IMG/VR virus record: IMGVR_UViG_2627854098_000004
Reading direction: 5' to 3' (one strand)
Length of the DNA stretch: 51,192 nucleotides
DNA from: a virus
Lineage: Duplodnaviria > Heunggongvirae > Uroviricota > Caudoviricetes
The notes beneath the pieces are model-generated. The model saw only the letters and a program-made list of their open reading frames with translations, searched no databases and was not told the DNA's origin. Each line of letters begins with the position of its first letter. Position 1 is the first letter of the stretch. Positions 6,161 through 44,169 of the stretch are shown here, piece after piece. A program made the translations under genes and the position numbers.

Positions 6161-6760
6161 TCAGAATTTATAACCGACACCAACGATGAAACCGTCAGTG
6201 CGCCAGTCGCCACTGCCGGAACCTTCATAAGCAATATCAATGGCCACGGATTCGGTCGGGTTAAACTGCACGCCAGCCCCCCACGCCAGAGACGTGTCGC
6301 TGTAGCGACCGTCATCACTTCCGGTCAGCACATCGTCCGTTTTCCCCTTGTTATCAGTTACGCGGAGATAATCCCCGGAGAAAGTCGACACACGGCTGTA
6401 AGCCACGCCCGCCATCGCATACGTGCTGAACCATTCATTCACGCGTACAGACGGCCCCGCCATCATGCTGAACCAGCGGTTACGCACGGAATCTTCATGC
6501 CAGCGGGTATCGCTGTAGTGCGTTTTTTGCTCATCCTCAGCATTGGCATAACTGAAGGACGTAATCAGCCCCAGCGCGTCCGTAAACTCATAACGGTATT
6601 TCACGTTAATCCCGTTCAGATTATCGCTGCCGGGAGCGTTCGTACGGGCATGAAGATACCCCGCGCTCAGTGTGGACTGATGTTCAGACGCCCATGCAGG
6701 CGCACCGGATACGGACAGACAGATGGCTGCGGACAAAATGGCTGCACATAATTTACGCAT
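6161..6760 (-). CDS. lom: Lom outer-membrane protein (Ail/Lom family)
   Basis: 199-aa ORF with signal peptide; near-identical to lambda Lom as I recall it; position between J and stf as in lambda. Confidence 0.85.
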   Translation of the reverse strand: MRKLCAAILSAAICLSVSGAPAWASEHQSTLSAGYLHARTNAPGSDNLNGINVKYRYEFTDALGLITSFSYANAEDEQKTHYSDTRWHEDSVRNRWFSMMAGPSVRVNEWFSTYAMAGVAYSRVSTFSGDYLRVTDNKGKTDDVLTGSDDGRYSDTSLAWGAGVQFNPTESVAIDIAYEGSGSGDWRTDGFIVGVGYKF

Positions 6761-6827: not shown

Positions 6828-9800
6828 TCAGCTAATCGTGATGCCTGCAGTGGCTTTCTTCATCACAACAACCAGCAAATCGCTGATACTTGCTGTGGGA
6901 TACCAGCCATTTACCCACCATGCTGATACAGAAAACTCCAGCGTCATGTCGCCGCGACCAGCAGGCATATCAATAACACCACTGTAAACCAGCGTATTAT
7001 CCATCGCGGTACGGTTATAAATTTCAGCACCGTTTTTCTTCACTATCAGGCGGCATGACGAATAAGTATCGCTGTTCTCCCGCTCATGTCTGGCACCGCT
7101 GAAAGCCACCGCCGGAATAACAATCTGCCGGTTAAACGGCTGATCGTCATAAACCCTGACGGTAATGGTTCCTGATGGCCAACGCTTCGGTGCACGGGAG
7201 TCACGAGGGAAAGCCTTACCCACTGTTTTAACGAGATCGCCTTCAATCTGGTTTGCAGACAGTTTCCCTCTGATGACACAGTTCTCGTTAATGGTGACAT
7301 TATTGAGCGTGCCGGTATTCGCCGTGATGGCTCCACTGATATCCGCATTGCGGGCTGTCAGCCTGCCATCCGGCGTCAGGGAAAACGTCGGAGGATTGCC
7401 GGATGACGTGATGCTCACCGCAAACAGTCGCTTCAGGAACACGTCGTTCATGAACAGCTGATTCCCCTGCGCCACAAACAGCGGCGTGGTGTTGCCGTTC
7501 TCCGGGGTAATCATCGCAATGCGATCGGCCTGCAGCAGAATGTTACTCAGGGTCTGACCATCAACATCCTCAATCCCCGCACCAATCCCGGCCACATAGG
7601 GAATACCGTTTTTTGTTTTCTGCACCTTCAGCATATACATGGCATTCAGCTCATTGCGCGTGTCTGACTGAACCCGCTGGATTTGCTGTATGGTCACGGC
7701 CTGGTCACCCAGCTTTTTATCCGTGGTCGAGGTAATTTCACTCCCTTTTTTATCCACGTACTGGCGGACCTGTGCTATCTGTCGGGCGTTTTCTGACTGC
7801 CCCTGGCTGACAGTCTGTGAGATTTCACTGCTCACCCGGTCCACTTTCTGGCTCACCTGCGCGATGGCCAGTGTCTGATCCTCATTCTTTTTCGCAACCA
7901 GCTGCGTGAGGCTGTTTTCCGCCTTCCCGATTTTCCGGGTCACTTCTGCGATATCCGTGTCCATCCGCTGACGGATATCTTCTTCCAGTTGCGTGACCTC
8001 CGTACGCAGCGCTGAAGCATCAATGCGCTCTTTCAGTGCCTGACCCAGAAGCGTCTCATCTATCAGCCCCCGGAAAATTTCCAGATACCCTTCACCATCA
8101 TTGCTGGGCTGCCCGCTGGCTTCCACAAAAGCAGATTTTCCCACCAGGTTGACGCTTCGCACGTAAAACCAGAAATCCGTTCCCGGCTTAATCCGGCTCC
8201 CCTGGACAGTCCACTGACTGCCGGTCCCCAGATAACGGGCAGATTTTTCCACCTGTGCTGTGTTCGTGATGCGTTTTTTCTGAGAACCAGAATTCAAACT
8301 GTACCGTCGGGTCATACACCGCAAGACGCGGGACCGCCGTTATCTGAAAATACCCCGGCGTCAGCTCAATGGTGGCGGGTTTTGCAGGTGCGTTAATCCG
8401 GAACGATACCGACGCCGGATCGCCCTGCTGTCCCCGGGCATTTACCGCCCGGACCGTCAGCGTGTAACGCCCCAGCGCCAGCTGCCTGAAGCGGTAAGTG
8501 GTTTCCGCCGTCCGGGCCGTGCTGACCAGCCGCTCACTGCCGTCATCCGCTGTTACGGTCAGACGGAGCAGGAAGCTCACGCCCTTCACCACCTTCGGCG
8601 TGTCCCAGCGCGCCAGCACCTGATATTCCCCGCTGTCTGCGGTGACTTCGGCGGTCAGGTGCTGCACCGCTGGCGGCGTGACACCATTCACCGTGCCGCT
8701 CTGGTCGCCGTCAAAGTGCGCTCCGTTATCCACGATGGCCTCTTTTTCCGGTACATGCTGCACGGCGGTGATGGCATACGTGCCGTCATCGTTCTCACGG
8801 ATACTCACGCAGCGGAACAGGCGCTGGCGCAACGTCGGCAGCTTCAGTCCCCATACGCTGTATTCTGCAACGCCGTCAGGAACACGGCTCACTTTTACCT
8901 TCACGCCGTCGGTGACGGACTGGACCTCCACGCTGACCGGATTCCCCTGTCCGTCAGCCAGGCTTATCAGCGTGGTGCCGGAGGATGGCAGCGTGATTTC
9001 ACGGTCGAGCGTCAGTGTCCGCGTCTGGTTGTTCACCGCCAGCACGCGCCCGCCGATGCTGATCCCCGCATAGTCATCATCACAGATTTCAATGACATCG
9101 CCCGGTACATGGCGAAGCCCTTCTGCACCCACGCTGAAGTCCACGGTCTGCGTTTCCAGCAGCTCCGTTTTAATCAGCCACAGCCCGGCGCGGTGTGCCT
9201 GCCCCCGGCTGGTACAGCCAAAGGCATCCATCTTCGTGACGTTACGACCGTAACGGGCAATGGCCTGCGTGTCCTCCACAAGCTCTGTCGCCGTCTCCCA
9301 GCCGTTATCCGGGTCAATCCAGTTCACCTCAACGGCATTATGGCGGTCTTTCAGGGCGCTGAAGCTGTAGCGGAACGGCGCGCCATCATCCGGCATCACC
9401 ACATTACTGCGGTTATAGGTCCACACCTTATCCGACGGTCGGTCCTGCACGAATGTCAGCGTCTGCCCGTTCCATACCGGCATACAGCGCATCGCCGAGC
9501 AAAAATCACTGAGCACATCCCACGCCTTGCGCTGTGTGGTCAGGTACGCATTACAGGTGATGCGCGGCTCCGTGCCGCCAAAGCCGTCCGGCACTGACTG
9601 GTCGCAATTCTGGCCGATGACATACAGCGCCCATTTATCCACATCTGCCGCACCAAGACGTTTCCCCATGCCGTAGCGCGGATGGGTCAGCATATCCCAC
9701 AGACACCAGGCCATGTTGTTGCTGTATGCTGGCTTAAACGTTCCGTCCCAGATACCGCTGTATTGCCGCGTCTGCGGGTTATAGTTCGACGGCACCTGCA

Positions 9801-10527
9801 GAATGCGCCCGCGAAGATGATAATTACGGCTCACCTGCTGGCTGCCGAACTGCTCCGAGTCCACCTGTACGCCGACCAGTGCCGTGTTCGGGTAGCACTG
9901 TTTCACATCGATGATTTCGGTGTATGACGACCAGAGCGTTTTGTTCTGCAACTGGTCTGTGGTGCTGTCCGGCGTCATCCTGCGCATCCGGATATTAAAC
10001 GGGCGCGGCGGCAGGTTATCCACCACCACCGAGGCCAGATACTGCGACGTGGTTTTGCCCTTAATGGTGATGTCTTTTTCCGTCACCCAGCCACCGTTAC
10101 GTTGAATCTGAACCAGCAGGCGGACTTCCGATGGATTCCTGTCCCCCTTTGAGGTGGTTTCCACCAGTGCCTGCACGCCGAAAGTAAAACGCAGACGGTC
10201 AATGTTTGCCGACGTGATGGTCCGGGTGATCGGCGTGTCATATTTCACTTCTGTACCGAGCACCGTCTCGGAGCCGGAGGATTCAAATCCCTCCGGCGGT
10301 GTCTGCTCCTGCTCACCGGCCCGGAACACCACCGTGACGCCGAATATATTGGTATTCCCCTCACTGTCCAGCACCGGCGTACTGTTCAGCAGCACGCTTT
10401 TTAATCCATCCACCGGACCTTCAACCGGCCCTTCGCTGATGGCGTCTATCACGCTCAGCATCTGGGATGATTTCAGGTTGTCCTTCGCTTCGCGCGGGGT
10501 ATGCCCCTTACTGCTGCCTTTACCCAT
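6828..10527 (-). pseudogene. J: tail tip/host-specificity protein J, split by a frameshift in a homopolymer at 8274-8279
   Basis: ORFs 8188..10527 (lambda J-like N-terminal 740 aa) and 6828..8324 (J C-terminal part) overlap; the reading frames join at the plus-strand T6 run 8274-8279 (A6 in the coding sense); removing one base restores [17 protein letters not shown]. Confidence 0.8.
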
Positions 10528-26219: not shown

Positions 26220-26897
26220 ATGTCCATCATTTTTAATGGACACTATCGTATGAAACACCGGACCTGGATCACTGAAGCTTTACGTCTTCACTTTGAAGAA
26301 CATTTACCCCGGGTTGTGGCCGGGCGTCGCCTGGGTGTACCAAAATCAACAGTTTGTAGTATGTTCGTGCGCTTTCGGAGAGCTGGCCTTTCGTGGCCTT
26401 TGCCCGCAGGCATGTCGGAGCAGGAACTTGATGCCTGCCTTTACGGACAATTTTCCACGGTACCAGTCGTACGTCCTGAAAGCACCGTTATATCCGAAGC
26501 CCCCGTGGTAAAAAAACGTCCCCGGCGGCCCAACTTCCCTTATGAGTTTAAAATCGCCTTAGTGGAGCAGTCACTGCAGCCCGGAGCCTGTGTGGCGCAG
26601 ATCGCCCGGGAAAACGGAATCAACGATAACCTGCTCTTCAACTGGCGCCATCAATACCGGAAAGGTGGCCTGCTGCCTTCCGGAAAAAATATGCCGGCAC
26701 TGCTTCCCGTGACGTTAACGCCGGAGCCGGATAATAAAATCCCGGCCCCCGCACAGGAACCAGAGCAGATAAATACACCGTCCGACAGTCTGTGTTGTGA
26801 GCTGGTTCTGCCGGCCGGAACTCTCAGGCTTAAAGGTAAACTGACGCCGGCGTTATTACAGACACTTATCCGCGAAATAAAAGGGAGCAGCCACTGA
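26220..26897 (+). CDS. IS66-family accessory protein TnpA (start uncertain)
   Basis: ORF has an IS66 orf1-like C-terminal part (PNFPYEFKIALVEQSL...LLFNWRHQYRKG); the N-terminal extension may not be translated. Confidence 0.6.
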   Translation: MSIIFNGHYRMKHRTWITEALRLHFEEHLPRVVAGRRLGVPKSTVCSMFVRFRRAGLSWPLPAGMSEQELDACLYGQFSTVPVVRPESTVISEAPVVKKRPRRPNFPYEFKIALVEQSLQPGACVAQIARENGINDNLLFNWRHQYRKGGLLPSGKNMPALLPVTLTPEPDNKIPAPAQEPEQINTPSDSLCCELVLPAGTLRLKGKLTPALLQTLIREIKGSSH

Positions 26898-27244
26898 TGA
26901 TATCTCTCCCTGCAGGTTCGCGTATCTGGCTGGTTGCAGGTATCACCGATATGCGAAATGGCTTTAACGGCCTGGCATCAAAAGTTCAGAACGTCCTGAA
27001 GGATGACCCGTTCTCCGGACACCTGTTCATCTTCCGCGGACGCCGGGGTGACCAGATAAAAGTGTTGTGGGCTGACAGTGACGGACTGTGCCTCTTCACC
27101 AAACGCCTGGAGCGGGGCCGCTTCGTCTGGCCAGTCACCCGTGACGGCAAGGTGCACCTTACTCCGGCTCAGTTATCCATGCTTCTTGAAGGTATCAACT
27201 GGAAGCACCCGAAACGAACGGAACGCGCTGGAATCCGCATATAA
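26897..27244 (+). CDS. IS66-family TnpB
   Basis: 115 aa; [27 protein letters not shown] signature. Confidence 0.85.
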   Translation: MISLPAGSRIWLVAGITDMRNGFNGLASKVQNVLKDDPFSGHLFIFRGRRGDQIKVLWADSDGLCLFTKRLERGRFVWPVTRDGKVHLTPAQLSMLLEGINWKHPKRTERAGIRI

Positions 27245-27263
27245 CCCGTTGTAAAGTGAGGAT

Positions 27264-28835
27264 ATGGACACCTCACTTGCTCATGAGAACGCCCGCCTGC
27301 GGGCACTGTTGCAGACGCAACAGGACACCATCCGCCAGATGGCTGAATACAACCGCCTGCTCTCACAGCGGGTGGCGGCTTATGCTTCCGAAATCAACCG
27401 GCTGAAGGCGCTGGTTGCGAAACTGCAACGTATGCAGTTCGGTAAAAGCTCAGAAAAACTTCGTGCAAAAACCGAACGGCAGATACAGGAAGCACAGGAG
27501 CGAATCAGCGCACTTCAGGAAGAAATGGCGGAAACGCTGGGTGAGCAATATGACCCGGTACTGCCATCCGCCCTGCGCCAGTCTTCAGCCCGTAAACCGT
27601 TACCGGCCTCACTTCCCCGTGAAACCCGGGTTATCCGGCCGGAAGAGGAATGCTGTCCTGCCTGTGGTGGTGAACTCAGTTCTCTGGGATGTGATGTGTC
27701 AGAGCAACTGGAGCTTATCAGCAGCGCCTTTAAGGTTATCGAAACACAACGTCCGAAACAGGCCTGTTGCCGGTGCGACCATATCGTGCAGGCACCAGTA
27801 CCTTCAAAACCCATTGCACGCAGTTATGCCGGAGCGGGGCTTCTGGCCCATGTTGTCACCGGGAAATATGCAGACCATCTGCCGTTATACCGCCAGTCAG
27901 AAATATACCGTCGTCAGGGAGTGGAGCTGAGCCGTGCCACACTGGGGCGCTGGACAGGTGCTGTTGCTGAACTGCTGGAGCCGCTGTATGACGTCCTGCG
28001 CCAGTATGTGCTGATGCCCGGTAAAGTCCATGCTGATGATATCCCCGTCCCGGTCCAGGAGCCGGGCAGCGGTAAAACCCGGACAGCCCGGCTGTGGGTC
28101 TACGTCCGTGATGACCGTAACGCCGGTTCACAGATGCCCCCGGCGGTCTGGTTCGCGTACAGTCCGGACCGGAAAGGTATCCATCCACAAAATCACCTGG
28201 CCGGTTACAGCGGTGTGCTTCAGGCCGATGCTTACGGTGGTTACCGGGCGTTATACGAATCCGGCAGAATAACGGAAGCCGCGTGTATGGCTCATGCCCG
28301 GAGAAAAATCCACGATGTGCATGCAAGAGCGCCCACCTACATCACCACGGAAGCCCTGCAGCGTATCGGTGAACTGTATGCCATCGAGGCAGAGGTCCGG
28401 GGCTGTTCAGCAGAACAGCGTCTGGCGGCAAGAAAAGCCAGAGCCGCGCCACTGATGCAGTCACTGTATGACTGGATACAGCAACAGATGAAAACACTGT
28501 CGCGTCACTCAGATACGGCAAAAGCGTTCGCATACCTGCTGAAACAGTGGGATGCACTGAACGTGTACTGCAGTAATGGCTGGGTGGAAATCGACAACAA
28601 CATCGCAGAGAACGCCTTACGGGGAGTGGCCGTAGGCCGGAAAAACTGGATGTTCGCGGGTTCCGACAGCGGTGGTGAACATGCGGCGGTGTTGTACTCG
28701 CTGATCGGCACATGCCGTCTGAACAATGTGGAGCCAGAAAAGTGGCTGCGTTACGTCATTGAACATATCCAGGACTGGCCGGCAAACCGGGTACGCGATC
28801 TGTTGCCCTGGAAAGTTGATCTGAGCTCTCAGTAA
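27264..28835 (+). CDS. IS66-family transposase TnpC
   Basis: 523 aa; zinc-ribbon CxxC...CxxC and IS66 transposase core. Confidence 0.85.
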
Positions 28836-29572: not shown

Positions 29573-29694
29573 ACAGTGAGGCGTTGTGTGGCATACAACG
29601 CCTTCTTCCATCATTCCTCGTCAGCCATGACAAAAATATAACCGCTGGCTCTTTCATTTTTCTCCTGCTTCCAGCCCCTCTCTACCTGGAAGCA

Positions 29695-30021
29695 TCAAGG
29701 ACGTGACGGCGTAAAGATAAATTGTCTCTTCACTCCCTGACAGGGGCGATTCTTTTCAAATCGCCATTTCGCCATGGCCTTCACCACTTCATCACGAAAC
29801 AAATTATGAGGCTCTGAGCGGAGAAAAACGATCCGTGTCACAGTCCCATCAGCACCAATATCGAACTTAACCTCAACCAGCCCCTTGATATAATTTGCTG
29901 CAGCATATTCCGGATATCGTGGATACACCGTCACTAATTGCCGGGGCTCATCAGCTTTTTGCTGCGAGCATCCCACTGCCAGGACAGATAACAGAAAAAG
30001 TAGTAAAAGGCGTCTTTTCAT
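29695..30021 (-). CDS. lipoprotein with a TonB C-terminal-like domain (108 aa)
   Basis: Start ATG 30021 with RBS AGGAA; lipobox LAVGC followed by Ser; PRYPEYAAANYIKGLVEVKFDIGADGTVTRIVFLRSEPHNLFRDEVVKAMAKWRF aligns with the E. coli TonB C-terminal domain. Confidence 0.7.
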   Translation of the reverse strand: MKRRLLLLFLLSVLAVGCSQQKADEPRQLVTVYPRYPEYAAANYIKGLVEVKFDIGADGTVTRIVFLRSEPHNLFRDEVVKAMAKWRFEKNRPCQGVKRQFIFTPSRP

Positions 30022-30501
30022 TTTTATTCCTACGGGTCTTATTCTGACAATATATCCTGTGTTCCAGACTGCCACATCACCACATCCTGTGCCATTATCT
30101 GACTCACATTACATACATCGCATCGGGATACAGTAGTAGCACTTTCTGTAATACAGCTTCCTGTTTCTTCCACCATCGCACCGGGATAAACCCGCGAATC
30201 ATTAACGCGGTAAAAACCCGGTGTGCATCGTTTTTAATTATTCCCGCACACTCACGCAGAAGGAATTCCCCGTCGGGCTACGGTCATGGTTAATGCGGGA
30301 ATACGGCGACGATACAGCGCAGCTAAAAGGGTAATGGACGGATAGACCGGTTTATTTCATTCCACAGGATTCTGAGTGTCCCCAACTTCCTCCAATAGTC
30401 TGAGCCCACCTGTGTAGTTTTAATTTTCATCAATCCATTTAACTATCGTTTAATTGTTGTCACATAGGATTCTGCCGTTTTTAACAATGCAGGATAATAA
30501 G

Positions 30502-30795
30502 ATGAAAAAAATGTTGTTTTCTGCCGCTCTGGCAATGCTTATTACAGGATGTGCTCAACAGACGTTTACTGTTGGAAACAAACCTACAGCAGTAACACCA
30601 AAGGAAACCATCACCCATCATTTCTTCGTTTCGGGAATTGGGCAGAAGAAAACTGTCGATGCAGCAAAAATTTGTGGTGGTGCAGAAAATGTTGTTAAAA
30701 CAGAAACCCAGCAAACATTCGTAAATGGATTGCTCGGTTTTATTACTTTAGGCATTTATACTCCGCTGGAAGCGCGTGTGTATTGCTCACAATAA
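30502..30795 (+). CDS. bor: Bor lipoprotein (serum-resistance family)
   Basis: Start MKKMLFSAALAMLITGCAQQ; near-identical to lambda Bor; opposite strand to the lysis genes as in lambda. Confidence 0.9.
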   Translation: MKKMLFSAALAMLITGCAQQTFTVGNKPTAVTPKETITHHFFVSGIGQKKTVDAAKICGGAENVVKTETQQTFVNGLLGFITLGIYTPLEARVYCSQ

Positions 30796-30826: not shown

Positions 30827-31300
30827 CTATCTGCACTGCTCATTAATATACTTCTGGGTTCCTTCCAGTTGTTTTTGCATAGTGATCAGCCTCTCTCTGA
30901 GGGTGAAATAATCCCGTTCAGCGGTGTCTGCCAGTCGGGGGGAGGCTGCATTATCCACGCCGGAGGCGGTGGTGGCTTCACGCACTGACTGACAGACTGC
31001 TTTGATGTGCAACCGACGACGACCAGCGGCAACATCATCACGCAGAGCATCATTTTCAGCTTTCGCATCAGCTAACTCCTTCGTGTATTTTGCATCGAGC
31101 GCAGCAACATCACGCTGACGCATCTGTATGTCAGTAATTACCGCGTTCGCCAGCGTCAGTTCTCTGGCATTTTTGTCGCGCTGGGCTTTGTAGGTAATGG
31201 CGTTATCACGGTAATGATTAACAGCCCATGACAGGCAGACGATGATGCAGATAACCAGAGCGGAGATAATCGCGGTTACTCTGTTCATTGCTGACCCCAC
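30827..31300 (-). CDS. Rz: i-spanin Rz
   Basis: 157 aa; N-terminal transmembrane segment then coiled-coil region; last gene of the lysis cassette. Confidence 0.85.
30886..31068 (-). CDS. Rz1: o-spanin Rz1 (embedded in Rz, +1 frame)
   Basis: 60 aa; lipobox VVGC; proline-rich; lies entirely within Rz. Confidence 0.8.
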
Positions 31301-31782
31301 AAACAGATTTCACGCTCAATCTCACGACGAGTCATGAGACCTTTCCATTGCTTACCGCCAGCATATGTCCAGCGACGTAGCTGATCACATGCGCCTTTGA
31401 TATCGCCCTGGTTTATTTTGCGAAGAAGCGTCGATGTTCTGAAATTGCCAGCACCCACGTTGTAAACGAATGAGTAAAGAGCGCCGCGCATTGTTTCCGG
31501 TATATCGACTTTGATGTACGGGTTAATTTGTCTGGCGACCGTGGCAAGGTCTTTATTCAGGAGGGCTTTGCATTCTGCTTTGGTATACGTTTTACCGAGC
31601 ATGATGTCTTTTCCTGTATGCCCGTGACATACAGTCCATACACCAACAATATCTTTGTATGGTATGTAGCTGACACCTTCCAGACCATCGTTACCACTTG
31701 GGCCAGTGATTAACACTGATGCTATAGCAATTGCTCCGCCACCAATAGCAGCAGCAACGGCTTTTCGTAATGATGGAGGCAT
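31285..31782 (-). CDS. R: SAR endolysin (T4-lysozyme-type, phage-21 R-like)
   Basis: 165 aa; Gly/Ala-rich N-terminal signal-anchor-release segment; catalytic E-x8-D-x5-T ([16 protein letters not shown]). Confidence 0.85.
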
Positions 31783-31997
31783 TATTCACCTCTCGCAGCC
31801 TTGCGCTTATCTTCTTTAATCTTGAAATAAAGGTTTGTCAGGTACGTCAGCAGGCCAAATACCAGGCTACCCAGCACACCTATTGCCGCCCACTGTGAGG
31901 GCGTGACTTTATCGAGCAACTGTAAAAACCAGTACCCGGCACTACCTGCTGAGGTACCATAGGCGACACCCGTTGTTAACTTATCCATGGATTTCAT
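31782..31997 (-). CDS. S: class II holin (pinholin, S21-like) with dual-start motif MKSM
   Basis: 71 aa; two transmembrane segments; Met1 and Met4 give antiholin/holin starts; ATGA-type overlap with R. Confidence 0.85.
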
Positions 31998-32585: not shown

Positions 32586-33668
32586 ATGAAAAAATTAACA
32601 GTGGCAATTTCTGCTGTAGCTGCATCAGTACTGATGGCGATGTCTGCTCAGGCAGCTGAAATTTATAATAAAGACAGTAACAAGCTGGATCTATACGGGA
32701 AAGTTAATGCCAAGCACTACTTCTCCTCTAATGATGCAGATGATGGTGATACTACTTATGCCCGTCTTGGCTTCAAAGGTGAAACCCAAATCAACGATCA
32801 ACTGACTGGTTTCGGTCAGTGGGAATATGAATTCAAAGGCAACCGTGCTGAATCTCAAGGTTCTTCCAAAGACAAAACCCGTCTTGCATTTGCAGGCCTG
32901 AAATTTGGTGATTACGGCTCAATCGATTACGGCCGTAACTACGGTGTAGCATACGACATCGGTGCGTGGACTGACGTTCTGCCAGAATTCGGTGGTGATA
33001 CCTGGACCCAAACAGATGTGTTCATGACTGGTCGCACTACTGGTGTTGCAACTTATCGTAACAACGACTTCTTTGGTCTGGTCGATGGCCTGAACTTTGC
33101 TGCTCAGTATCAGGGTAAAAATGACCGCACTGACGTAACTGAAGCCAATGGTGATGGTTTCGGTTTCTCCACTACTTATGAGTATGAAGGATTCGGCGTG
33201 GGTGCAACCTATGCTAAATCAGATCGCACTGACGGTCAGGTCGCCTATGGTAAGAGCAAATTCAATGCCTCCGGCAAAAATGCGGAAGTATGGGCTGCAG
33301 GCCTGAAATATGATGCGAACAATATCTATCTGGCTACCACATATTCTGAAACTCAGAATATGACCGTTTTTGGTAATAACCATATTGCAAACAAAGCACA
33401 AAACTTTGAAGCAGTAGCACAATATCAGTTTGACTTCGGTCTGCGTCCATCTGTTGCTTACCTTCAGTCAAAAGGTAAAGACCTTGGTGTTCATGGTGAC
33501 CGAGACTTAGTCAAGTATGTCGATGTCGGTGCTACTTACTACTTTAATAAAAACATGTCCACTTTTGTTGATTACAAAATCAACTTAATTGACGATAGTA
33601 AGTTTACCAAAACAGCTGGTATTGATACCGACGACATCGTCGCTGTAGGTCTGGTTTATCAGTTCTAA
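32586..33668 (+). CDS. phage-borne general porin (OmpC/OmpF/NmpC-Lc family)
   Basis: ORF 32526..33668; start ATG 32586 with RBS AAGGG; signal peptide ...AMSAQA then AEIYNKD, C-terminal F; between Q and S on the opposite strand, as for nmpC in DLP12. Confidence 0.9.
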
Positions 33669-41835: not shown

Positions 41836-43374
41836 TTATTCAGTCGGCAGTGCTACGCGCCAGGGGAGCAGTTCGCCGACCCGGTTTATCGGCCAGTCGG
41901 CTATGACGTCAAGGACATAGCGGAGGTAGCTTTCTGGCTCCACTCCGTTCAGTTTGCACGTCCCGATCAGGCTGTACAGCAGCGCTCCCCGCTCTCCTCC
42001 ATGATCCGAACCGAAGAACAGGTAGTTTTTGCGGCCCAGACTGACCATCCGCAACGCATTTTCAGCGATGTTATTGTCCGCCTCAGCCCAGCCATCATCT
42101 GCATAGTACGTCAGCGCCGGCCACTGGTTCAGGGCGTATGCGAACGCTTTCGCCAGTTCTGAGTGTCGCGACAGGGTTTTCATCTTTTCACGCAGCCAGC
42201 TTTCCAGGGATTTCAGCAGCGGTTTCGTTTTCAACTGACGTTCGGCAAGGCGCTGCTCCGCCGTCATTCCCCTTATCTCTGCCTCGATGGCGTACAGTTC
42301 GCCGATCCGTTTCAGCGCTTCCTCCGTCAGGGCTGACGGGGTGCGAACGTGCACATCGTGGATTTTACGGCGGGCGTGAGCCCAACAGGCGGCTTCCGTT
42401 ATCCGGCCATCCCGGTACAGCTCGTTGAACCCGGCGTATGCATCCGCCTGCAGTACACCACTGAACCCCGCAAGATGGGTCTGCGGATGGATGCCTTTTC
42501 TGTCCGGGCTGTAAGCGAACCACACCGCCGGCGCCAGCGTTGACCCGGCGTTACGGTCGTCACGAACGTAGGTCCATAACCGCCCGGTCTTCGTTTTCTT
42601 ATTGCCTGGCAACAGCACCGGGACAGGCGTGTCATCAGCATGGAGCTTACCGTCAGTCAGCACATAGCCATGAAGCGCCTCTTCCAGCGGAGACAGCAGC
42701 CGGCAGCATGCATCCACCCAGCCCGACAGCAGTGAACGGCTCAGCTCCACACCTTGCCGGCCGTATATTTCTGACTGGCGATACAGCGGGGTGTGCTCTG
42801 CATACTTCGAGGTCAGCACGCGGGCCAGCAGCCCCGGTCCGGCGATACCCCGCTCGATGGGCCGCGAAGGTGCAGGTGCCTGCACGATGGCATCGCACTG
42901 AGTACAGGCATGTTTTTCCCGTACCGTCCGGATAACCCGGAAGGCGCTACGCATCAACTCCAGCTGTTCGGCGGTATCCTCGCCCAGATAGCTCAGTGAA
43001 CCGCCGCAGTTCGGGCAGCACGGCGCCGCAGGCAACAGTCGCTTTTCGTCACGGGGTAGTGATTCAGGGAACGGCTTACGGGTGCGGGTCTGACGCAACG
43101 GACGCTGTACTGCCGGGTCATACACCCTACCAGTCAGCGTATCGCTCTCTTTCTGAAGCCGGTTCAGATCGGCTTCCATTTGTGCGATACGGCGGGAGAC
43201 TTTTTCGGAACGACTGCCGAAGTTCATCCGGCGGAGTTTATCCAGCTGCGCCTGCAGATGGTCTATTTCGCGCTCCCGGTTGCTCAGCTTTTCCTGCAGG
43301 GCGTGGATCAGCGCTTCCTGTTCGGCCAGGCGCTGTTTCAGCAGGAAGATGTCGTCAGAAGAGATGTCGTTCAT
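41836..43374 (-). CDS. IS66-family transposase TnpC
   Basis: 512 aa; IS66 transposase with zinc-ribbon CxxC motifs. Confidence 0.85.
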
Positions 43375-43423
43375 AAGCCCGTATTTTACCGGGCTTATTC
43401 TGTGACAACCAGGATAAAGAGAT

Positions 43424-43771
43424 TTACAGCATGGTCAGGGAGGTCAGCAGCCGCTTAGGCTGTCGCCAGTCGATACCTTCCAGCAGCATCGCCAGCTGCG
43501 CCTGTGTAAGGAACACTTTGCCATCACGGGCTGACGGCCAGGCGAAGCGCCCACGCTCCAGCCGTTTGGTCAGGAGGCACAGTCCGTCACCGGTGGACCA
43601 CAGCAGTTTAACCTGACTGCCGCTGCGGCCCCGGAAAATGAAAACATGGCCGGACATGGGATCGTCTTTCAGCGCCGTCTGTACTTTCGCAGCCAGGCCG
43701 TTGAAGCCATTTCTCATATCAGTGATACCGGCAACCAGCCAAATTTTGGTCCCGGAAGGTAACGGGATCAT
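43424..43771 (-). CDS. IS66-family TnpB
   Basis: 115 aa; [27 protein letters not shown]. Confidence 0.85.
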
Positions 43772-44169
43772 CGCTTCAGTTCCTGTATCAGCAGAGTCAG
43801 GAGCTTTTCGCTGACATTGCCATTGAAGCGGAGCGTCCCGTGCCGGAACGTTACCTCACAGCTGATACTGAGGGTTTCCGGGTCCTCTGCGAGCGATTCT
43901 GGCTGTTCGGCAGCTGCATCGAGAGTCACAGGAAGTAGCTGGGGGCTCTCTGAAGAAGGTAATAGCAGCTTTCCCTCGCGCCATTGTTGTCGCCATTTGA
44001 ACAACAGATTGGCGTTAATGCCATTTTCAAGAGCAAGTTTTGAGATGGATATCCCGGGTTCACAGGAGGCAGCAACGAGCTGCTGTTTAAATTCGGGAGG
44101 ATAATTAGGGCAGCCTTTTCGCCTGCCGGGAGTCACATTTTTCTGCATATCTGACACTTTGGTTCCCAC
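43768..44169 (-). CDS. IS66-family TnpA
   Basis: 133 aa; ATGA-type overlap with tnpB. Confidence 0.8.
   Translation of the reverse strand: MGTKVSDMQKNVTPGRRKGCPNYPPEFKQQLVAASCEPGISISKLALENGINANLLFKWRQQWREGKLLLPSSESPQLLPVTLDAAAEQPESLAEDPETLSISCEVTFRHGTLRFNGNVSEKLLTLLIQELKR

Follow-up and report, generated by a model that had tools for sequence, protein, structure and literature searches.

A free-standing TonB C-terminal domain in a predicted outer-membrane lipoprotein encoded behind the lysis genes of lambdoid prophages

The window analysed here, a stretch of 51,192 nucleotides, is an entire lambdoid prophage from the chromosome of an Escherichia coli resembling APEC IMT5155 (100% identity), and the direction of late transcription in it is the minus strand. 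According to the ORF list and annotation, the lysis cassette (30827..31997, minus) consists of genes for a holin (31782-31997) and a SAR endolysin (31285-31782), followed by Rz (30827-31300) with Rz1 embedded in it (30886-31068), all on the minus strand. Next come a bor/iss lipoprotein gene in the opposite orientation (30502..30795, plus; Pfam Lambda_Bor, E=1e-30, annotated iss), a 45-codon ORF and the gene considered here, which encodes a small lipoprotein with a TonB C-terminal domain (TonB_C) at 29695..30021 on the minus strand. On its 3′ side lie two small ORFs, then the IS66-like element ISCro1 (26220-28835), which separates the TonB_C region from the terminase small-subunit gene, and then the terminase genes. 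The iss gene (increased serum survival) is a virulence marker of ExPEC and APEC. Its position between Rz and the TonB_C gene is a feature of this lineage only, and bor/iss is not there in the O157, Klebsiella, Salmonella and Rahnella lineages. The 45-aa upstream ORF was considered as a conserved partner and rejected, since it is shortened in the O157 allele.

A second IS66-family element (about 41836-44148) splits gene N, and frameshifts are annotated in O, in the tape-measure gene (H), in K and in J (about 6828-10527). With two IS66 insertions and these frameshifts the prophage is defective. The cargo genes (iss, porin, lom and TonB_C) and the lysis genes are intact in it. The OmpC/NmpC-like porin gene is located at 32586-33668 (plus), between the Q antiterminator and holin genes, and opposes the late operon.

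The TonB_C gene starts with an ATG at 30021 and ends with a TGA at 29695-29697, and its 108-residue product is WP_000830178.1. A ribosome-binding site, AGGA, can be read at 30028..30031 (minus), 6 nt 5′ of the ATG, and the phage 21 record annotates a ribosome-binding site at the equivalent position. A GTG at 30075 was rejected as an alternative start, as neither the other allele nor existing annotations support it. Translation bears out the lipoprotein signal, with an LAVGC lipobox and Ser at +2, that the earlier note had claimed. The N-terminus reads MKRRLLLLFLLSVLAVG followed by Cys, in agreement with the lipobox rule. The signal peptide (residues 1-17, lipobox L-A-V-G-C) maps to 29968..30021 (minus), and Cys18 (codon 29968-29970) is predicted to be the lipidated first residue of the mature protein. 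Lipoproteins with Asp at +2 are kept in the inner membrane. Here Ser follows the Cys (LAVG, then C-S-Q) and this Lol-avoidance Asp is absent, so that Lol-dependent sorting to the outer membrane is predicted. The sequence thus combines the invariant lipobox Cys with a +2 residue other than Asp, as in bacterial outer-membrane lipoproteins.

The mature protein begins with a short tether (residues 19-25, SQQKADE; 29947..29967, minus), which has low AlphaFold2 pLDDT and is predicted to be disordered. The distance from Cys18 to the first residue of the domain is about 8 residues (SQQKADE-P). The TonB C-terminal domain itself (residues 26-104; 29710..29946, minus) is delimited by Pfam, TIGR and PDB matches, by the fold and by alignments. 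It contains a Y36-P37 'YP' motif, an aromatic core of F53, F75, W86, F88 and F103, and an edge strand at residues 94-103. By alignment this strand corresponds to beta3 of TonB, and it is present in the AlphaFold2 model; in TonB, beta3 is the strand that pairs with Ton boxes. Seven of the 90 mature residues are Pro, none of them in a repeat, and the C-terminus (...KRQFIFTPSRP) has no hydrophobic segment.

Two hairpins directly 3′ of the stop codon (29579..29694, minus; MFE -49.8 kcal/mol, z=-3.5) may form a terminator. The first occupies 29666-29694, and the second has a 9-bp GC-rich stem at 29579-29603 and then a U-rich tract; a strict terminator scan did not detect these hairpins. Within the ORF, on the opposite strand, a strong sigma-70-like motif is found at 29867-29894 (plus; TTAACC-16-TATAAT after TG, 10/12). 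At the matching codons of the second E. coli allele described below (L013 5155-5128, minus), a similar motif is found (TTCACA-16-TATAAT, 11/12) despite near-saturated synonymous sites. This recurring motif could be an antisense promoter, or it could be a by-product of the conserved residues V-K-F...N-Y-I.

That the domain matches the C-terminal domain of TonB, as the earlier note had proposed, holds in every comparison. Pfam PF03544 (TonB_C) matches the product at E=7.3e-13 with 49 bits (cut-off 24.6), TIGR01352 matches with 47 bits, phmmer finds E. coli TonB chains in the PDB at E=1.4e-14, and BLASTP aligns it to TonB 150-230 with 33/81 identities and 0 gaps. Judged from these alignments, the similarity to the TonB C-terminus is well past chance. 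NCBIfam equivalog models of full-length TonB match only at their last 80-90 positions (about 150-240) and far under their cut-offs, which is direct evidence that the anchor and the Pro-rich rod are missing from the product. Residues 1-18 are a cleavable lipoprotein signal and not a cytoplasmic-membrane anchor, and a proline-rich spacer that could span the periplasm is absent, as the roughly 8 residues between Cys18 and the domain illustrate. The protein is therefore unable to transduce energy, and this part of the earlier note is upheld.

The AlphaFold2 model was built from a 20-sequence family alignment; a single-sequence run was poor (pLDDT 51). Its pLDDT climbs from about residue 26, and the predicted fold has near-identical geometry to TonB complexed with BtuB, FhuA and FoxA in a structure search of the PDB. 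A TonB-like fold, rather than an unrelated one, was the structural check proposed earlier, and it is what the model and the fold search return, together with the Pfam match over the curated threshold. TonB comes first among the PDB fold matches listed, followed by TolA. Another fold match is 9hi3, a structure of FusB, a protein that binds ferredoxin. Positions P26, P34, Y36, P37, G59, P71, F75, W86, P93 and F103 are invariant or nearly so in the family, and thus the YP motif of TonB and its structural core are what the family conserves; Cys94 is unconserved. TonB residues Q160, R158 and R166 have genetic or structural roles in specific contacts. In the phage protein they are replaced by Y33, T31 and Y39, respectively.

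The gene is widespread. Phage 21 encodes an identical protein (CPT_21_73), likewise between bor and cos, and the gene is present in 1617 of 5426 complete E. coli genomes (~30%). For 1202 of the copies identity is 99% or higher, with Nissle 1917, UTI89 and ATCC 25922 among the carriers, and a second allele with about 72% protein identity accounts for 392 copies in O157 and O111 strains. Gene coverage is at least 80% in 1612 of the 1617 genome copies, and among the copies listed all are annotated as protein-coding genes. Comparison of the two E. coli alleles gave dS of about 1.5, dN of 0.19 and dN/dS of 0.12, with similar dN/dS in the signal peptide and in the domain. These rates mean that purifying selection on the gene is strong.

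Exhaustive searching with HMMER turned up many free-standing TonB_C proteins, 100-135 residues long. The closest relatives bear a lipobox and come from Salmonella, Klebsiella, Raoultella, Gibbsiella, Rahnella, Erwinia/Pantoea and Serratia; in all lipobox relatives the Cys is preceded by Gly or Ala and followed by Ser, Thr or Ala at +2. The lipoprotein signal is conserved over lineages at 31-72% identity. In a neighbour-joining tree of the domains, calculated with no bootstrap, the small lipoproteins form their own clade apart from enterobacterial TonB domains. This grouping is indicative only; it holds proteins from prophages as well as chromosomal, non-phage ones. A recent truncation of tonB was rejected as the origin of the gene, which belongs to this group instead.

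None of ten chromosomal loci has a phage gene nearby, and their neighbourhoods are unrelated: beside lacZ/lacI, in the bcs cellulose cluster, or between ycgN and dsbB. The small chromosomal TonB_C proteins (L003-L005, L009-L010, L016-L023) are found in Erwinia, Klebsiella, Raoultella and Serratia; some are lipoproteins and others have an ordinary signal peptide. Their neighbourhoods are fixed yet mutually unrelated, for example in the bcs cellulose-synthesis cluster after the GH8 gene. Such unrelated contexts imply that the fold also has a non-phage life, and the location of these homologues away from transporter and phage genes hints at a more general envelope role.

In viruses, by contrast to this variety, the gene has a constant address. 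Viral loci were scanned with a narrow alignment (A2), in a scan saturated with identical copies, and extra scans were made with the Salmonella and Klebsiella members. In 103 of the 105 IMG/VR loci whose sequence extends 2.5 kb or more upstream, a co-oriented lysis gene lies on that side, and none of the 105 has one there on the opposite strand; these loci are highly redundant, and the effective weight of the count is that of five sequence groups and four endolysin types (phage 21-type SAR lysozyme, O157-type lysozyme, Klebsiella-type lysozyme and GH19). The Rahnella homologue, only 32% identical, lies downstream of holin-endolysin-Rz/Rz1, co-oriented with them and upstream of terminase. The same position after lysis genes and before terminase is occupied by the O157 allele, by the homologue of Klebsiella phage ST13-OXA48phi12.4, by the Salmonella type and by a group about 40% identical (L119). 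Thus, the address is constant although holins, endolysins and terminases vary among lineages.

In L119, the TonB_C gene begins about 80 nt past Rz1 and has a strong intrinsic terminator directly 3′. Further along this contig (6410-7354) lie genes for a homologue of DNA polymerase III theta (HolE) and a PhageMetallopep protein, and the intrinsic terminators at 6324-6343 and 6667-6686 follow the TonB_C and theta genes, one each. L119 hence carries a series of cargo-like units between lysis and packaging. In a Salmonella-type contig (L114, 645-2549), the TonB_C gene stands between two different Rz/Rz1 pairs, which is evidence of mosaic recombination precisely at this junction.

The earlier note had placed the gene in a moron cluster next to bor. 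The bor gene is indeed about 480 nt upstream, on the opposite strand. As for the traits expected of an autonomous moron, the G+C content is 46.8% against 50.5% for the window and hairpins or terminators lie 3′ of the gene, and no consistent promoter of its own was found. The TonB_C gene seems to be more than a bor-like moron, because it keeps its post-lysis position on the late-operon strand in 103 of 105 viral contigs. Bor/Iss and Lom of lambda are likewise small envelope proteins that lambdoid prophages carry as cargo between Rz and cos. In lysogens, bor has its own promoter and is read in the direction opposite to the late operon. Unlike Bor, the TonB_C gene is always on the late-operon strand and shows no consistent promoter signal: simple sigma-70 scans of the upstream coding strand found no promoter-like site in the window or in the O157, Rahnella and L119 lineages, and the one promoter-like site just upstream of the gene in the Klebsiella phage is at chance frequency. 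Given its co-oriented position after the lysis genes and the lack of a consistent promoter, the gene most likely forms part of the Q-antiterminated late transcript that also carries those genes. It may have a weak promoter as well and be expressed in lysogens, and late-lytic expression is at least as likely as lysogen expression.

A lipoprotein signal and a place beside the lysis genes are shared with Rz1-type o-spanins, and phrog_1267, which matches the product at E=5e-43, is labelled 'Rz-like spanin' in the lysis category. A spanin identity was rejected. Rz1 is a Pro-rich peptide of roughly 40 residues, whereas the mature TonB_C protein is a 90-residue folded alpha/beta domain; the true Rz1 of the window is embedded in Rz upstream, Rz/Rz1 are also found in L114 and L119, and a C-terminal transmembrane segment as in unimolecular spanins of the T1 gp11 type is absent. 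The label is likely a mis-annotation derived from position, one that phage annotation pipelines will propagate.

Our preferred interpretation, quite possible but short of probable, is that the lipoprotein acts as a mimic of the TonB docking domain and jams TonB-dependent gates. In this model, the lipid anchor would hold the TonB-type domain at the inner leaflet of the outer membrane, which would place it beside the periplasmic face of TonB-dependent transporters. Its retained edge strand (94-103) could take the Ton boxes of FhuA, FepA, Cir and BtuB, and Ton boxes of incoming group-B colicins could be occupied too. Occupancy by strand pairing, as in TonB, would shut out the real TonB, and with no ExbB/ExbD link there would be no pull, leaving the occupied transporters closed. 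Closed transporters would then exclude TonB-dependent phages of the T1 and phi80 type, colicins, microcins and siderophores.

If the gene is read from the late transcript, the induced cell and the timing of its holin might be shielded from outside attack until lysis. Pore-forming group-B colicins or superinfecting phages depolarise the membrane and would in this way trigger the holin prematurely. A late TonB mimic could, speculatively, guard the lysis clock against such early triggering. In its full form this proposal describes a conserved extra member of the lysis cassette, a late docking mimic that shuts all TonB-dependent gates and prevents early holin firing, with group-B pore-forming colicins, microcins and TonB-dependent phages kept from depolarising or taking over the induced cell; we consider it rather unlikely as a whole. 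If it were true, it would define a new class of exclusion, in which mimicry of a host fold acts on the Ton box, a handle common to many receptors.

Two precedents make the decoy the best-supported reading. As cited in PMC9841981, an overexpressed periplasmic TonB domain blocks TonB-dependent iron import in E. coli, and overproduced TonB fragments inhibit TonB-dependent transport (Howard, Herrmann, Stratilo & Braun 2001, J Bacteriol 183:5885). Like the phage protein, such engineered fragments are TonB domains detached from the energy source, and they provide the direct experimental model for the proposed mechanism. They are artificial, soluble and derived from E. coli TonB itself, whereas the phage protein is natural, diverged and predicted to be lipid-anchored. 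Compared with TonB (E. coli P02929), whose residues 150-239 form the matching domain, it lacks the SHLS/H20 anchor region and the Pro-rich rod, would be lipid-anchored to the opposite membrane without ExbB/ExbD coupling, and differs in the contact residues and in its clade.

The second precedent comes from Llp of T5 and Cor (phi80, N15, HK022), small phage lipoproteins in the inner leaflet of the outer membrane, which inactivate FhuA by acting on it from the periplasm (bioRxiv 10.64898/2026.03.26.714494); its authors put this forward as a common way to counter TonB-dependent transporters. Their fold is unrelated to that of the TonB_C lipoprotein: Llp (8A60) is not among the PDB matches listed, and BFVD, a set of predicted viral protein structures, gave no neighbour at E<0.1. 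The phage protein would thus use the TonB_C domain apart from TonB, with an Llp/Cor-like logic, a different fold and a shared target. Other differences concern timing, as Llp is an early gene and the TonB_C gene lies in the late region, and self-direction. LamB does not belong to the TonB-dependent transporters. Llp and Cor close off the receptor that their own phage uses, whereas phage 21, with its identical TonB_C gene, uses LamB (bioRxiv 10.1101/2024.04.15.589635). Self-directed receptor blocking was therefore rejected, and exclusion would target other phages and colicins and leave the spread of phage 21 itself unhindered.

Several observations argue for such a decoy. Domain identity, predicted fold, YP motif, core aromatics and the beta3-equivalent strand are all kept; the lipobox, without Asp at +2, is clade-wide; and selection on the gene is strongly purifying. 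The gene is also widespread, being carried by 30% of complete E. coli genomes and, in identical form, by phage 21, and it stands after the lysis cassette. On the other side, the TonB contact residues Q160, R158 and R166 are not retained. The tether of about 8 residues joins the domain at the end which, in TonB, faces away from the outer membrane, which makes the bound geometry uncertain, and efficient Lol sorting with so short a tether is uncertain as well. Synthesis in lysogens would come at a cost, through a general block of iron and B12 uptake; with synthesis confined to the late phase, it is harder to see what exclusion would gain. Moreover, chromosomal homologues are not beside transporter or phage genes, and the PADLOC models of anti-phage defence gave no match (0 families at E up to 1).

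The protein could instead be a lysis or late-envelope accessory, in which the TonB-type fold binds a partner other than a Ton box and tunes envelope breakdown or lysis timing. Candidate partners are peptidoglycan, Lpp, OmpA, a spanin or TonB/ExbD, for example through a heterodimer with the TonB C-terminal domain. Its co-oriented position right after holin-endolysin-Rz/Rz1 in nearly all viral loci and with four endolysin families, the short distance to Rz1 and the strong 3′ terminator in L119, and the lysis label of its family, PHROG 1267, are consistent with such a role, and TonB-type domains are able to bind other proteins, as the fold match to 9hi3 (FusB, with ferredoxin as partner) illustrates. 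Yet an Rz/Rz1 pair is already present in each of the loci examined, the protein has neither a C-terminal membrane segment nor a Pro-rich Rz1-like sequence, and chromosomal homologues have no lysis genes nearby. In addition, cargo such as bor is known to land between Rz and cos, which makes position by itself a weak argument. We regard an accessory role as unlikely.

An unlikely further alternative is a factor of lysogenic conversion or host physiology, produced in the lysogen under a weak promoter belonging to the gene. Its effect would be to tune, and not to block, TonB-dependent uptake or signalling (iron, B12 or FecA-type signalling), or to add an iss/bor-like virulence trait, in the same role as the chromosomal homologues. 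In this ExPEC/APEC prophage the gene adjoins iss, with lom and the porin gene not far away, its G+C content is below that of the surroundings, and hairpins or terminators lie 3′ of it, all of which speak for this alternative. Chromosomal paralogues are stably placed in several genera of Enterobacterales, and the Klebsiella phage has its promoter-like site just upstream. However, such a site is absent from the coding strand upstream of the gene in the window and in the O157, Rahnella and L119 lineages. The ORF has stayed intact in a decaying prophage (two IS66 elements; frameshifts in O, H, K and J), but a 327-bp ORF is a small mutational target and its intactness is weak evidence; the lysis genes of the same prophage are likewise intact.

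That the gene is a dead leftover of a captured host tonB, as implied by older labels ('partial tonB-like' or 'TonB fragment' in EDL933-derived records and phage Perceval) and by its correspondence to the C-terminal third of TonB only, is highly improbable and effectively refuted by the selection and conservation data, namely a dN/dS of 0.12 at near-saturated synonymous divergence, a complete lipoprotein signal acquired and kept over distant lineages, near-complete coverage in almost all genome copies, protein-coding annotation of those listed, and a clade apart from enterobacterial TonB domains.

The domain assignment is already known from annotation records, in which the protein is named 'TonB family protein' (RefSeq) or 'TonB C-terminal domain protein' (phage 21 record), and is not new. 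A literature search found no functional study of the gene, and the paper on the phage 21 genome (PMC9119081) contains no discussion of it. The following appear to be new: its recognition, from the sequence, as a predicted outer-membrane lipoprotein, a family that spans prophage and chromosomal branches, evidence that the gene is under selection, and the strict post-lysis-cassette position. Carriers include the textbook phage 21, Nissle 1917, UTI89, ATCC 25922, O157:H7 and APEC strains. If the TonB_C lipoprotein does block Ton boxes, it would represent the first case of a dominant-negative TonB in nature, and it could broadly exclude TonB-dependent phages, colicins, microcins and sideromycin-type antibiotics. 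Such exclusion would bear on host range in phage therapy, on how probiotic and pathogenic E. coli compete, and on antibiotics of the "Trojan horse" kind. Moreover, the fixed position after the lysis genes would add a new player to one of the most thoroughly studied phage modules.

Outside the Enterobacterales, one match concerns a 418-bp contig (L015, NZ_SJEX01000172.1) of a Modestobacter excelsi assembly, which encodes the first 67 codons at 100% protein identity (tblastn). This match is almost certainly E. coli contamination of the actinobacterial assembly.
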